Source of the DNA: an uncultured Methanosarcinales archaeon
GTDB taxonomy: Archaea > Nanobdellota > Nanobdellia > Woesearchaeales > UBA12501
NCBI GenBank assembly: GCA_964397315.1
Contig: CAYNHV010000001.1
Coordinates: forward strand, 12,367-76,366
Reading direction: 5' to 3'
DNA: 64,000 nt
This document shows, piece by piece, positions 37,962-43,140 of the stretch. Position 1 is the stretch's first letter, and the number at the start of each line of letters is the position of its first letter. The position numbers and the translations under genes were made by a program. The notes below the pieces were generated by a model. That model was not told the DNA's origin and ran no database searches. It was given only the letters and a program-made list of their open reading frames with translations.

Positions 37962-38228
37962 TTGGGAATGGGGCATAGAGAGGTTTTCTGGCTCAGGTGC
38001 AGGTCATGCGGGAGGAGAGGGAAGTACATTGCAGACCCTGAGGAAATATCATATCAGAAAGGGCATGGCCTTATCCTGAAGTGGGGCCTTGAGTGCAAGT
38101 TCTGCAGCACACCCCTTACTCATGACAACCTGACAGAGATGAGTGTCAAGGAATTGTATATGTATCTGGCAGGCAGGCAGATTGGTGTTGCTGATCTTCT
38201 GCTGAAAGAGAATCGTTCAGATTACTGA
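37962..38228 (+). CDS. small zinc-ribbon protein (CxxC...CxxC)
   Basis: 'CRSCGRRG...CKFCSTP'. 88 aa. Its stop codon lies inside the 65-bp junction repeat. Confidence 0.4.
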   Translation: MGMGHREVFWLRCRSCGRRGKYIADPEEISYQKGHGLILKWGLECKFCSTPLTHDNLTEMSVKELYMYLAGRQIGVADLLLKENRSDY

Positions 38229-38290
38229 AAGATTTTTCCATAAAACCTTTCAGTGCACTGAAAGAAATAGGGTTTCGGCTGTGGGGATTG
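38225..38290. repeat. ~65-bp junction repeat copy 1 (CTGAAAGATTTTT..AAAACCTTTCAGTGCACTGAAAG..GGGTTTCGGCTG)
   Basis: A direct repeat of this sequence occurs at 40688..40753. It contains the inverted repeat CTGAAAG/CTTTCAG. Confidence 0.55.
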
Positions 38291-38392
38291 GTTTATAAAA
38301 GGCTGTTCTATTAGATTTAATAGGTTTATAAGGGTTTTTTGGGAGGATATGCTTTCTAAAACAAGAAAAATTTAAATATCAGAAAGTATTAT

Positions 38393-38629
38393 TTGATATT
38401 AATGGATATCACAGGATATGAAATTGAGATCAGGAGGCATGCTCTCATAAGGGCTATGCAGAGAGGAGTGAGCCCTGACATGGTGGAGGCCACAATAAAG
38501 GGAGGCAGAATAGAAAGTTTTGGAAAGAATAACAAAAGGTTTTCAAAAAAGTACAAGGCTTTCACAGTAGTCTGTGTTGATGAGATTACAGGCACAAGAG
38601 TAAAGATTGTTACAATAGAAACAAGATGA
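38393..38629 (+). CDS. small toxin-like protein (DUF4258/BrnT-like family guess) of a two-gene TA-like pair
   Basis: 78 aa. It overlaps by 4 nt with a downstream zinc-ribbon/SpoVT-AbrB antitoxin-like gene. Confidence 0.4.
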   Translation: MILMDITGYEIEIRRHALIRAMQRGVSPDMVEATIKGGRIESFGKNNKRFSKKYKAFTVVCVDEITGTRVKIVTIETR

Positions 38630-38946
38630 GGTGTGTTAAAATGGCAAAAAAATGTTCTGAATGCGGCGGGAGCATGAAAGAGCTCAAGGCAAAGACTTCT
38701 GAAGGCGTAAGCTACACTTATTTCAGGTGCGGGAAATGCGGGGAGGAGATCCTCAGCATGGGCCAGCTTCACAGTGTAGCAGAGAAGTACAGGAAAATCA
38801 AGAGATACCATGCAAAGCTCTCATCCTGGGGAAGAAACATAGGGCTCAGGATACCGAAGGAGCTGGCTGAGAGATACCATTTCAGCGATGATGACGAGGT
38901 CACCATAATCCCAGAGAAAGATGGAATAAGGATAATACCTGCCTGA
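38626..38946 (+). CDS. antitoxin-like protein: YgiT/MqsA-type zinc ribbon + SpoVT/AbrB-like C-terminal domain
   Basis: 'CSECGGSM...YTYFRCGKCGEE' followed by 'GRNIGLRIPKELAERYHFSDDDEVTIIPEKDGIRIIP'. Confidence 0.5.
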   Translation: MRCVKMAKKCSECGGSMKELKAKTSEGVSYTYFRCGKCGEEILSMGQLHSVAEKYRKIKRYHAKLSSWGRNIGLRIPKELAERYHFSDDDEVTIIPEKDGIRIIPA

Positions 38947-39046
38947 GCAATTACATTGTAGCGGAGACTCTCACAGAGGCTGAGCTAGGCAGGGAGCTTA
39001 ACAAGGATCTTGTAATATTCTGGAGTGTCCTGAGAAACATAAAACC

Positions 39047-39166
39047 TCACATATGTCTTGAGAAATCCTCATCAACATCAGCCAGCTTTAGAATATTCTT
39101 CAGGGTGCCTATCTTGATTAACAGCCTTATCTCCAGAAATCTTTCTAAGCCCTGGCGCTCATAGCA
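39047..39166 (-). pseudogene. hicA: hicA toxin remnant (C-terminal ~40 codons only, no start codon)
   Basis: The minus-strand frame reads '...LEIRLLIKIGTLKNILKLADVDEDFSRHM*', matching the HicA C-terminal consensus 'GTL(K/R)SIL(K/R)QAGLSVEEF'. It opens directly after a stop and has no ATG/GTG/TTG. Confidence 0.4.
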
Positions 39167-39357
39167 ACCTCAAAAGTTGTCATCCATGTCCTTTTCTTTT
39201 CCTTAAGCGGGAATTCCTCAAGATACAGCTCAGTGGCTTCCTTCAGATTGGCCACAGCCTCGTCTATGGTATTGCCCTGGCTGACAGTGCCTGCCTCAGG
39301 GCATTCAGCAACATACATATCCTCTTCCTTGTGGACTACAGCTGTCAGGGTTTCCAT
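39145..39357 (-). CDS. hicB: HicB-family antitoxin (UPF0150)
   Basis: 'MYVAECPEAGTVSQGNTIDEAVANLKEATELYLEEF'. Start set at internal 'METLTAVV'. Confidence 0.65.
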   Translation of the reverse strand: METLTAVVHKEEDMYVAECPEAGTVSQGNTIDEAVANLKEATELYLEEFPLKEKKRTWMTTFEVAMSARA

Positions 39358-41331: not shown

Positions 41332-42074
41332 ATCCTGACCAGCTTAAGGAGATTGCAGCTGACAAGGGTTTTGGCCTTGACCTCATGCTAAAGGATTACT
41401 ATGTCACTATCATACATTATCTTCTGAAGGATATAGAAGGCCTGTATTTCAAGGGAGGGACTGCTCTGCAGAAGATATTTCTGGACTACTCAAGGCTCAG
41501 CGAGGATGTGGACTACACTCTCACCAGAGATGTTACGCAGGTCAGAAAGGAGATAAACTCGGCGCTGGAGGAAAGCGGGCTTTTTGAGGGTATAAAAAAA
41601 GACAAGGATGTGAGTGATTTCACAAGAATGGTCGTCCCTTACAAGGGTTTTGAAGGGAAGGAGGAAGTCATATTCATAGACCTTAACAAGAGGGCAACTC
41701 TGCTCCGGAAACCTGAGAAGCACGAGATCAGCCACTTCTACAGGGATAATATTCCCCAATTCAGGATACTGACCCTTGCAAAGGAGGAAATGATAGCTGA
41801 GAAGGTAGCAGCAGCCATGGGAAGGAACAAGCCGAGGGACCATTATGACATCTATAAGATAATCAAGGCTGGAATGCCAATAGATATTGATGATGTGAAA
41901 AAGAAATGCGAAAGCTCAGGCATAGAGTTCAACATAACAAGAATGTTCAACAAGGCAAAGAAGCTCAAGGCAAGGTGGGACAGCAGCATGATCCCCTTAC
42001 TTGCAGAAGAAGTCTCATTCAAGGAGGTCATGGCAACCCTATCAGAGCATTTCAATCTCAGGAAGGGTGAGTGA
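41310..42074 (+). CDS. AbiEii/AbiGii-family nucleotidyltransferase toxin (DUF1814)
   Basis: 'YFKGGTALQKIFLDYSRLSEDVDYT' is the hallmark GGTAL..R.SEDxD motif. 254 aa. Confidence 0.75.
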   Translation: MDKIKNIDPDQLKEIAADKGFGLDLMLKDYYVTIIHYLLKDIEGLYFKGGTALQKIFLDYSRLSEDVDYTLTRDVTQVRKEINSALEESGLFEGIKKDKDVSDFTRMVVPYKGFEGKEEVIFIDLNKRATLLRKPEKHEISHFYRDNIPQFRILTLAKEEMIAEKVAAAMGRNKPRDHYDIYKIIKAGMPIDIDDVKKKCESSGIEFNITRMFNKAKKLKARWDSSMIPLLAEEVSFKEVMATLSEHFNLRKGE

Positions 42075-42160
42075 GCAATTACATTTATAAACCAGTGGCC
42101 TGTTATTGGGGATTATGTCATACACTGTATTGGCTTTTAAAAGGGTTCTAAATGGTTTTG
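42066..42160. repeat. ~95-bp direct repeat copy 1 (starts TGAGCAATTACATTTATAAACCAGTGGCC)
   Basis: ~97% identical to 43046..43140. It encodes an N-terminal fragment identical to the start of gene 43082 ('LGIMSYTVLAFKRVLNGFEG'). Confidence 0.6.
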
Positions 42161-42239
42161 AGGGCTTTAAAGTCTTGATGAAGCCCTAACGCAACATTTA
42201 TATATTAGCACATATTACACATAATACAAGGGTGATAGA

Positions 42240-42464
42240 ATGGTTAACATAACACTTTCAGTGCCTGCAGAAACAAAGCAGAAGATGGACTCCTTTTCTG
42301 AGATCAACTGGAGCGCAGTGGCAAGAGAGGCCATTAATGAGAAGATAACTGACCTGGAATTCATGAAGAAATTCAAGTCAAAAAGCACTCTCACAGAGGA
42401 TGAGGCTGTAAAGCTCGGCAGGGAGCTTAACAAGAGCCTCGCGAAGAGGAGGCAGACAGCTTAA
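42240..42464 (+). CDS. VapB-like antitoxin (small DNA-binding protein upstream of the PIN gene)
   Basis: 74 aa; its stop overlaps the start of the PIN ORF (ATGG...). Confidence 0.45.
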   Translation: MVNITLSVPAETKQKMDSFSEINWSAVAREAINEKITDLEFMKKFKSKSTLTEDEAVKLGRELNKSLAKRRQTA

Positions 42465-43034
42465 TGGATCTTGTAATAGACGCCAACATACTCTTCTCTG
42501 TGCTGATAAGAAAAGGGAAGACTGAGGAGCTTCTGTTTGAGGATGACCTTCATCTTTTTGCTCCTGAGTTCATATTTGAGGAATTCAGGAAGTGTCAAAA
42601 ACCACCAGTCAGAGACCGGTGGCATGAAGCGAAAGCTTCATTCTCATTCTTTATTGACCTGTGGTTTTTGAGCATGCTCAGAAATATACCCTCTGCGGAT
42701 ATGCCTTTGTGGACTTTGTCCACTGGTTAAATAAACCAGTGGTATATTTCTGACATATGAAAAGCTGATATTAGAGAAAACTGACCGTCAGAAGGGGGAA
42801 TTTGAGAAATTGATGGATATCCTCAACAGAAGAATAAAGACAACCCCAAACGAGGACACATGGCAGTATGTCCAAAAAGCTATAGAGATCAGCCCTGACA
42901 GGAAGGATGCTGACTATATTGCATTGGCTCTCAAGCTGAAATGCCCTTTATGGAGCAATGATAAAAAGCTGAAAGATCAGGAAGAGGTCAGGGTATATTC
43001 CACCAAAGAGCTGATCAGGGAATTCAACCTATAA
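42464..43034 (+). pseudogene. vapC: vapC (PIN-domain toxin) interrupted by 166-bp MITE; precise excision restores a 134-aa ORF
   Basis: N-terminal piece 'MDLVIDANILFSVL...APEFIFEEFRK', C-terminal piece '...DADYIALALKLKCPLWSNDKK'. The element occupies 42593..42758 (166 nt = 3n+1), and the two pieces are in frame once it is removed. Confidence 0.65.
42593..42758. mobile_element. 166-bp MITE-like structured repeat, copy B (inside vapC)
   Basis: 165/166 identical to 13323..13488. Confidence 0.65.
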
Positions 43035-43045
43035 CAGAGAGCTGG

Positions 43046-43140
43046 ATAGAGCAATTACATTTATAAACCAGTGGCCTGTTATTGGGGCTTATGTCATACA
43101 CTTTGTTGGCTTTTAAAAGGGTTCTAAATGGTTTTGAGGG
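43046..43140. repeat. ~95-bp direct repeat copy 2 (overlaps the start of gene 43082)
   Basis: See 42066..42160. Confidence 0.6.

Follow-up and report, generated by a model that had tools for sequence, protein, structure and literature searches.

Archaeal integrons are defined by arrays of attC sites, with or without the integrase IntI, and their cassettes likewise frequently encode toxin–antitoxin (TA) proteins (Ghaly et al. 2022, PMC9668308). The AbiE and PDC systems, the latter for the most part without validation of an antiviral function, have been reported as enriched in DPANN archaea (PMC12988326). The DNA studied here (64,000 nucleotides of contig CAYNHV010000001.1, assembly GCA_964397315.1, positions 12,367 to 76,366; hereafter the window) carries a dense group of TA and abortive infection (Abi) genes with repeated sequences at several unit boundaries, which an original prediction made from the sequence had read as an integron-like or recombination-hotspot array of cassettes. 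The analysis reported below points instead to a partly decayed, recombination-active TA/defence island of known kind, not integron-like, a reading to which we assign a probability of roughly 75%.

With prokaryotic defence and TA islands the locus shares a dense cluster of AbiE, PDC-S01, VapBC, HicB- and MazE-type genes lying between housekeeping genes, and self-contained modules that recur in many unrelated contexts; here pseudogenised toxins and a miniature inverted-repeat transposable element (MITE) are present as well. No essential difference from such islands was found, the particular features of this one being its very compact spacing and the retained 5′ stubs that make direct repeats. 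With integrons, and with clusters of attC sites lacking integron integrases (CALINs), it has in common a cassette-like, TA-rich array and repeats at some unit boundaries. It differs from them in having no intI within the window, no attC cores or hairpins, genes with promoters of their own and a mixed orientation. The nature of the repeats also differs: they measure 92–104 nt and are either unfolded promoter and 5′ coding sequence (repeat A) or an operator palindrome belonging to one gene family (repeat R1).

Results

Repeat R1 and the AAA_14/DUF4143 gene

The first boundary repeat, R1, had been predicted as a sequence of ~65 bp. It is real at both of its sites, R1a and R1b (Table 1), and its extent is ~104 nt rather than 65: a gapped alignment of 38196–38299 with 40660–40764 scored 86, compared with a shuffle maximum of 28. 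The palindromic core of 41 nt is 93% identical between the two copies, and CTTTCAGTGCACTGAAA occurs in the window only at R1a and R1b, a count reached by none of 100 shuffles.

R1b stands 5′ of a gene for an AAA_14/DUF4143 ATPase-nuclease. In Pfam searches its product matched AAA_14 (5.5e-35) and DUF4143 (3e-24), and it matched the PADLOC profile PDLC04787 with an E-value of 2.7e-108 over positions 9–408 of 412, which identifies it as PDC-S01, a system whose antiviral function has candidate status only. Both the full-length profile match and the pairing of AAA_14 with a DUF4143 PD-(D/E)xK domain agree with PDC-S01. In the AlphaFold (AF2) model of the protein (pLDDT 86.7, pTM 0.87) an AAA+ domain, a lid and a winged helix are followed by the PD-(D/E)xK domain, an architecture like that of STAND and Orc1/Cdc6 proteins; structural matches included the archaeal AAA+ proteins SSO1545 and PAB2304, Orc1/Cdc6, Apaf-1/CED-4, MalT and Avs proteins.

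Between the TATA box of R1b (~40727–40736) and the start codon (ATG at 40673) lie an operator O1, TTTCAGTGCACTGAAA, an AT-rich spacer and a second operator O2, CTTTCAGTAGGGTGAAA. A rightward TATA box at 40757, also within R1b, faces abiE, and the DNA of R1b folds with a z-score of -3.9. The nearest homologues of the AAA_14/DUF4143 protein are 58–63% identical and are encoded by single genes in unrelated neighbourhoods (beside bacterial methylerythritol phosphate (MEP) pathway genes, between MoxR and DUF58, on marine contigs, and beside another AbiE pair). The layout of R1b was repeated 5′ of the orthologue in five of the five contexts examined, L031, L032, L035, L124 and L126 (L numbers denote fetched loci). 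It occupies the 60–75 nt before the ATG and reads GAAA-nn-TTTAtATA, TTCA-N4-5-CTGAAAG, an AT-rich spacer of ~15 nt, CTTTCAG-N5-TGAAA and the start codon; in L035 both inner half-sites have changed in concert (CTGAACAATTT...AAATTGTTCAA). Among more distant members of the family (L039–L118), 39 of the 75 distinct upstream regions contained an exact direct or inverted repeat that was significant against dinucleotide shuffles, where ~7 were expected. These repeats differ in sequence between lineages and are located 3′ of the TATA box (or -10 element) and 5′ of the start codon. As the same arrangement of TATA box and operators precedes the orthologues, R1b is identified as the native promoter of the AAA_14 gene, equipped with two operators. 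The AT-rich centre of the palindrome had been considered as the TATA box of the gene and was dropped, given that the orthologue alignment puts the conserved TTTAtATA 5′ of operator 1.

The interval between TATA box and start codon is the usual place of archaeal repressor sites. It is a reasonable inference, drawn from the model and from this layout, that the PDC-S01 protein may bind the R1 operators through its winged helix and so repress its own promoter. The literature found on DUF4143 and PDC-S01 makes no mention of the conserved TATA and paired-operator region. A similar organisation is known from AbiE, a type IV TA system in which AbiEi autoregulates through inverted repeats in the promoter, and the island indeed has an overlapping abiE pair with palindromes in the shared upstream region. 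These palindromes, however, lie 105–145 nt 5′ of the abiEi ATG and track the AAA_14 gene, the orthologues in L031, L032, L035 and L124 keeping them without an abiE neighbour. As a separate observation, an AAA_14 orthologue of 63% identity is again divergent to an AbiEi/AbiEii pair in L125 (3424–5643) and L126 (4320–7287), with the pair there only ~30% identical to that of the window; the recurring neighbourhood may be more than coincidence.

The other copy, R1a, has both operators intact, a degenerate TATA box (CCCTATTTC), no ATG, and ~14 nt of the former coding sequence. No AAA_14 coding remnant was detected beside it by tblastn, the similarity there being limited to those ~14 nt of DNA. To judge from the alignments, R1a is most probably the 5′ stub of a lost second copy of the AAA_14 gene. 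Elsewhere the R1 palindrome was found only 5′ of AAA_14 orthologues. A scan of the GTDB species genomes, a set that does not include the source genome, gave 28 matches, all apparently due to chance (two, in Woesearchaeota, were within coding sequence and unrelated), and a scan of IMG/VR gave five chance matches, none beside an AAA_14 gene.

Repeat A, the 14-mer and the membrane-protein gene

The second boundary repeat, A, had been described as a direct repeat of ~95 bp that duplicates the first 20 codons of the gene downstream. It does flank vapBC, as two copies of 92 nt (A1 and A2) that are 97% identical, differing at 3 positions (blastn E 6e-40). What it duplicates is the promoter and ~17 codons, counted from the likely ATG at 43091, of a membrane-protein gene. 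A2 is the active promoter, in which GCAAT is followed by TTTATAAA and the TATA box lies 31 nt 5′ of the ATG. A1 comes directly after the stop codon of abiEii, whose TGA overlaps the T preceding the repeat, and opens a dead ORF (open reading frame) of 24 codons (tblastn MSYTVLAFKRVLNGFEG). Repeat A has no secondary structure, folding no better than its shuffles (z +1.5 and +0.6). The membrane-protein gene is an orphan: a search of 5.8 billion proteins gave no hit other than its own product, which also matched no family in Pfam or PADLOC. The stop codon of the gene and the TATA box of the next one are 2 nt apart.

A 14-mer, TGAGCAATTACATT, had been reported as a third recurring mark. It is exact at 38944 and 42072, where its TGA terminates the ORF before it, as stated; the third site, at 43048, has one mismatch (AGAGC...) and is not a stop. 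The number of occurrences with up to 2 mismatches is not significant, 12 of 100 shuffles reaching it. The exact second copy nevertheless carries weight, since the sequence that follows it (38967–39017) is a remnant collinear with the end of vapB and the beginning of vapC. The 92-mer and the 14-mer are thus copies of one promoter and gene start, and their sequence was absent from the 124 other fetched loci and from IMG/VR. A family of 17-mers (40748, 42075, 43051 and 43617) was considered separately as a shared junction mark and downgraded, since GCAAT followed by a TATA box is also found at housekeeping promoters.

The vapBC unit, its relic and a MITE-like element

Between A1 and A2 stands a vapBC pair in which a PIN-domain toxin gene is preceded and overlapped by a small antitoxin gene. 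The vapB-like gene has its own TATA box at 42197, 43 nt upstream, and its product matched no family in profile searches. The toxin gene is interrupted by a MITE-like element of 166 nt, as had been predicted. Removal of the insert restores a protein of 135 aa that matches PIN_2 (1.2e-25), and a database look-up of the read-through ORF spanning vapC and the insert found nothing on record. The element has 5-nt terminal inverted repeats (TGTCA...TGACA), two strong hairpins and a DNA fold z-score of -6.6, and is present in the window in two copies.

A second trace of the unit lies on the other side of the AAA_14 gene. From 38944 onwards the sequence consists of the 14-mer, the 3′ end of vapB (~95% identical, with a deletion of 9 nt) and the 12 nt immediately 3′ of the vapC ATG, and its translation corresponds to residues 50–67 of VapB with 72% identity. 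This collinearity with the A-vapBC arrangement implies that a second such unit once stood at 38944 and was almost wholly deleted.

Absence of integron hallmarks

Pfam scans of the called ORFs, covering ~57 proteins of the window, returned no match to a recombinase family of the tyrosine (IntI) or serine type, nor to a transposase family. The attC sites at the ends of integron cassettes carry RYYYAAC and GTTRRRY cores in an imperfect hairpin of ~55–140 nt. A scan for RYYYAAC...GTTRRRY pairs 40–160 nt apart on either strand of 37000–44500 was also negative, this being a simple core-pair pattern scan and not the dedicated covariance model of HattCI/IntegronFinder. TATA boxes were located 30–43 nt 5′ of the DUF4258, vapB, AAA_14 and membrane-protein genes, in place of the common promoter that serves the mostly promoterless cassettes of an integron, and hicB and AAA_14 are on the minus strand, so that the units are not co-oriented. 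The claim of an integron-like array is not supported by these observations.

The notion of a boundary element shared by the units fares no better, given that R1 is an AAA_14 control region that travels with its gene and A, with the 14-mer, is a single promoter and gene start. R1 is tied to one gene family and A to one gene, and the junctions at R1, at hicB/AAA_14 and at DUF4258 contain no A sequence. Confinement of the repeats to this locus, named in the original prediction as what would speak against it, is also the outcome of the searches over the fetched loci and IMG/VR, the palindrome recurring only 5′ of AAA_14 orthologues. The original prediction stands, on the other hand, as regards a modular TA/Abi island, which bears the footprints of module insertion, duplication and decay, and as regards the existence of the repeats, supported by the R1 alignment score, the E-value of repeat A and the two exact 14-mers.

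A hotspot form of cassette capture would assign to the left edge of A (GAGCAATTACATT, right after a stop codon) the role of preferred insertion point for TA units 5′ of the membrane-protein gene. A junction derived from A would remain after every insertion, and the locus as a whole would be an integron-like platform of a non-canonical type, dependent on a recombinase gene located elsewhere. Three junctions do show the same left edge of A with different upstream partners, there are two A-vapBC units, and the related island described below also has recurring junction sequences at module ends. Nevertheless, only one type of cassette, vapBC, goes with A, the GCAAT and TATA combination is a general promoter feature of the host genome, several junctions lack A, the sequence is missing from the other loci and from IMG/VR, and neither a recombinase in 64 kb nor an attC-like core pair or structure was detected. 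We regard a hotspot of this kind as very unlikely and retain the explanation of the repeats as copied control regions and gene starts.

A parallel island in a related archaeon

An analogous island is present in L119, a contig of a related DPANN metagenome-assembled genome (MAG; GCA_053532215.1). Its modules comprise two MazE–PIN pairs, an HTH (helix-turn-helix) gene with its partner and an AAA_14/DUF4143 gene, together with a nucleotidyltransferase gene (Polbeta/NTP_transf_2) and its unannotated neighbour of 134 aa. A repeat of 300 nt (93%) spans both MazE promoters and gene starts, and a 44-nt inverted repeat with a TATA box is found as a unit 5′ of three genes. The 3′ end of the neighbouring housekeeping gene TYW3 (GATGATAAAAAGATAGAGGAGYTCTA) recurs at four module ends (8054–8096, 8907–8930, 10360–10402 and 13860–13902), two of these copies forming the ends of the two PIN genes, and looks like the footprint of insertions into the 3′ end of TYW3. 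As L119 has boundary repeats of its own, the copying of modules along with pieces of adjoining sequence appears as a recurrent process in such islands, not tied to one particular site.

In archaeal integrative elements, direct repeats of the target gene mark both ends. A1 and A2 could accordingly be viewed as attL and attR sites, left by a plasmid or small integrative element that brought a copy of the gene start with it, integrated at the 5′ end of the membrane-protein gene, and later lost its integrase and most of its cargo while the addictive vapBC stayed. The insert does lie between 92-nt direct repeats, which leave the target gene intact, and the L119 island offers a parallel in the TYW3 3′ end that is found again beyond inserted TA modules. 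The insert, however, measures only 884 bp, Pfam scans of the called ORFs revealed no integrase remnant, and the target is not a tRNA gene but an orphan gene without homologue, hence unlikely to be a conserved att site. An origin from a mobile element is thus considered unlikely, and turnover of modules within the island is the explanation that we pursue in what follows.

Proposed history of the island

In the history that we propose, the island would grow by insertion and duplication of modules and decay by deletion and MITE insertion, and the junction repeats would be by-products of this turnover, not recombination sites. In a first step vapBC would have come to sit within the start of the membrane-protein gene, A being duplicated in the process. 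The two copies of A would then have allowed homologous exchange, by unequal crossing-over or by Campbell-type integration of an A-bearing circle, giving rise to another A-vapBC unit beyond the hicB–AAA_14–abiE block. Finally, the older A-vapBC copy would have been deleted almost completely, and the MITE would have entered the vapC gene of the other. We infer that homologous recombination between copies of A produced the duplications. The A1-vapBC-A2 arrangement and the A-vapBC relic correspond to products of such exchange in systems of amplification and excision by homologous recombination, although no circular form, tandem array or deletion allele was observed here.

The reliability of the assembly bears directly on this history, as chimeric or collapsed strain variants in a MAG could in principle generate duplicated segments. 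The window comes from a MAG, Logan contig L001 stops at 42102, ~29 nt inside A1, and no independent contig spans the A1-vapBC-A2 join. On the other side, Logan contigs are 100% identical to the window across R1a, the mazE/14-mer junction with the relic, R1b and the abiEii/A1 junction. The reading frames are coherent on both sides, and the differences between A1 and A2 (3 positions) and between R1a and R1b (~20%) mark them as distinct loci. An artefact is on these grounds extremely unlikely, and the duplications are taken as real.

Several observations weigh against the history proposed here. Three different genes (mazE-like, abiEii and vapC) adjoin repeat A at the same nucleotide, a coincidence for which tight packing and chance account only loosely. 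The A1-vapBC-A2 join has no independent assembly support. The searches covered the window, the fetched loci and IMG/VR, so that more copies of A or a distant recombinase may exist in the genome. In R1a, the operator core is better kept than its flanks (38/41 versus 44/65 matches, Fisher p 0.004), from which it follows that the stub may still be functional and not a mere relic. Of two related readings, the first would make the left edge of A a promoter-proximal site of repeated TA capture and amplification in DPANN archaea, operating without integron integrase or attC, and the second would have R1a kept because PDC-S01 still binds its two intact operators. We consider these readings distinctly doubtful; if the second were true, binding at R1a would wire the DUF4258/MazE module into the PDC-S01 regulon.

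Genes and setting of the island

The island extends from 37173 to ~43090, with eight modules in 5.9 kb, and is bordered by a P-type ATPase gene on one side and a glycan-biosynthesis cluster on the other. The modules are an HTH gene with a truncated nucleotidyltransferase, the zinc-ribbon gene, DUF4258 with Zn-MazE, the vapBC relic, hicB (with a possible hicA relic), the PDC-S01 AAA_14/DUF4143 gene, AbiEi/AbiEii, and vapB with the MITE-disrupted vapC. The left limit is set at 37173 because the truncated nucleotidyltransferase partner belongs to the HTH module. Unrelated TA and defence modules are thus clustered between housekeeping genes, with relics and a MITE insertion among them. In base composition the island is not distinct from its surroundings, and neither tRNA genes nor Rfam matches were found in the whole window. 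The coordinates of all features are collected in Table 1.

Table 1. Positions of the genes, repeats and relics discussed in the text, and the evidence on which each call is based. Positions refer to the window unless an L number is given.
Feature	Position	Strand	Basis
Nucleotidyltransferase-like partner gene, 5′ stub (24 codons of ~225 aa)	37173..37244	-	tblastn
HTH protein gene, antitoxin-like	37237..37878	-	624 homologues; weak HTH_23 match
Small zinc-ribbon protein gene	37968..38228	+	homologues
R1a, probable dead copy of the AAA_14 5′ control region	38196..38299	-	gapped alignment to R1b and orthologue promoters
DUF4258 toxin-like gene	38402..38629	+	Pfam DUF4258 E 2e-4, just below curated cut-off
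Zn-ribbon + MazE/AbrB (SpoVT) antitoxin gene	38626..38946	+	Pfam MazE_antitoxin 31.9 bits, above cut-off
Relic of second A-vapBC unit	38944..39017	+	collinear alignment
Possible hicA remnant, open frame ...LERFLEIRLLIKIGTLKNILKLADVDEDFSRHM*	39045..39150	-	translation only; unconfirmed
hicB-like antitoxin gene	39145..39357	-	HicB_lk_antitox 22.4 bits, below cut-off 27; UPF0150 match
AAA_14/DUF4143 ATPase-nuclease gene, PADLOC candidate single-gene defence system PDC-S01	39393..40673	-	Pfam, PADLOC
R1b, functional AAA_14 5′ control region	40660..40764	-	layout matches orthologue promoters
AbiEi antitoxin/regulator gene	40831..41331	+	PADLOC AbiEi 5e-21; Pfam AbiEi_4
AbiEii nucleotidyltransferase toxin gene, full length	41310..42074	+	Pfam AbiEii 8e-26; PADLOC 1.4e-38
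A1, copied membrane-gene promoter (GCAAT + TTTATAAA) and first ~17 codons	42073..42164	+	repeat alignment
vapB-like antitoxin gene	42240..42464	+	ORF; stop overlaps vapC start
vapC (PIN_2) toxin gene, MITE-disrupted	42464..43034	+	reconstructed protein
MITE-like element, 166 nt	42593..42758	.	second copy 13323-13488, 99.4% identical
A2, active promoter and 5′ end of membrane-protein gene	43049..43140	+	repeat alignment, TATA box
Orphan membrane-protein gene	43091..43624	+	no family, self-hit only
Orthologue control regions	L031:5925-6003; L032:5932-6003; L035:2848-2928; L124:5225-5300; L126:5930-6003		

At the left end, the nucleotidyltransferase stub adjoins the 3′ end of the P-type ATPase gene, and the partner proteins of L119, L121 and L122 match it by tblastn only with residues 1–24 (58–79% identity). 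In the relatives a nucleotidyltransferase-like gene of ~225 aa, with a faint AbiEii match, invariably comes after the HTH gene and overlaps it (L119:9001-10315; L121:223-1546; L122:9001-10312); the two genes, widespread in DPANN, look like an unclassified AbiE-like TA pair. The zinc-ribbon protein belongs to a real small family, with 5 homologues of 74–84 aa at 36–55% identity and a conserved W-L-C...CKFC pattern, and the last ~11 codons and stop of its gene are inside R1a. The DUF4258 gene is called as a 75-aa gene in a Logan contig, and the TGA stop of the Zn-ribbon/MazE gene that follows it is formed by the first 3 nt of the 14-mer.

Pfam and PADLOC upheld the gene calls for DUF4258, Zn-ribbon + MazE/AbrB, AAA_14/DUF4143 and AbiEi/AbiEii. 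The AbiE genes are adjacent with an overlap of 22 nt, and the AbiEii match covers positions 2–256 of the 260 in the PADLOC profile. For the predicted hicB with a hicA remnant, the hicB match is weak, and the remnant had no match in Pfam or PDB.

The toxin has been inactivated in three modules, by truncation of the nucleotidyltransferase gene, by deletion of one vapC and by the MITE in the other; hicA may be a fourth case. The cognate HTH, hicB and vapB genes remain intact. Loss of the toxins first, with the antitoxins kept, is the expected order of TA decay.

The window is part of an archaeal chromosome and encodes an A-type ATP synthase, SMC, archaeal STT3, RecJ-like proteins and large glycan-biosynthesis clusters. 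The sources of the homologues of the HTH protein are named Woesearchaeota, Nanoarchaeota or Aenigmarchaeota, and the host is therefore a DPANN (Woesearchaeota-like) archaeon, with a small genome. All island proteins are singletons at 90% identity in a cluster look-up and are on record only from one NCBI contig and short Logan contigs of SRR7048227, two of which are 100% identical to 36961–39130 and 40494–42102 of the window. TATA boxes of the TTTATAAA type precede many start codons across the window by 30–34 nt, a spacing which indicates that most mRNAs are leaderless or nearly so. GCAAT occurs 1–4 nt 5′ of the TATA box at 26425–26446, 30289–30310, 14811–14832 (minus) and 42183–42204, and may be a B recognition element (BRE)-like element of the host; the AAA_14 gene and its orthologues have CGAAA, not GCAAT, before the TATA box. 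In the glycan cluster, the GC content falls to ~33–34% at 48500–50000, compared with ~44% around, over a radical-SAM/B12-binding gene and the start of the next epimerase gene, and this stretch may be horizontally acquired.

Implications

The locus calls for caution: where archaeal genomes are compact, repeats at module boundaries can simply be copies of promoters, operators or gene starts, and they should be compared with the promoters of orthologues before an integron-like platform is proposed. A useful by-product is the conserved TATA and two-operator region that moves with PDC-S01 across organisms, which, together with the structural model, provides a testable hypothesis of autoregulation for a very common and uncharacterised candidate defence gene. 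Finally, the island documents TA decay in a DPANN genome, where 5′ stubs left as direct repeats could drive more rearrangement.

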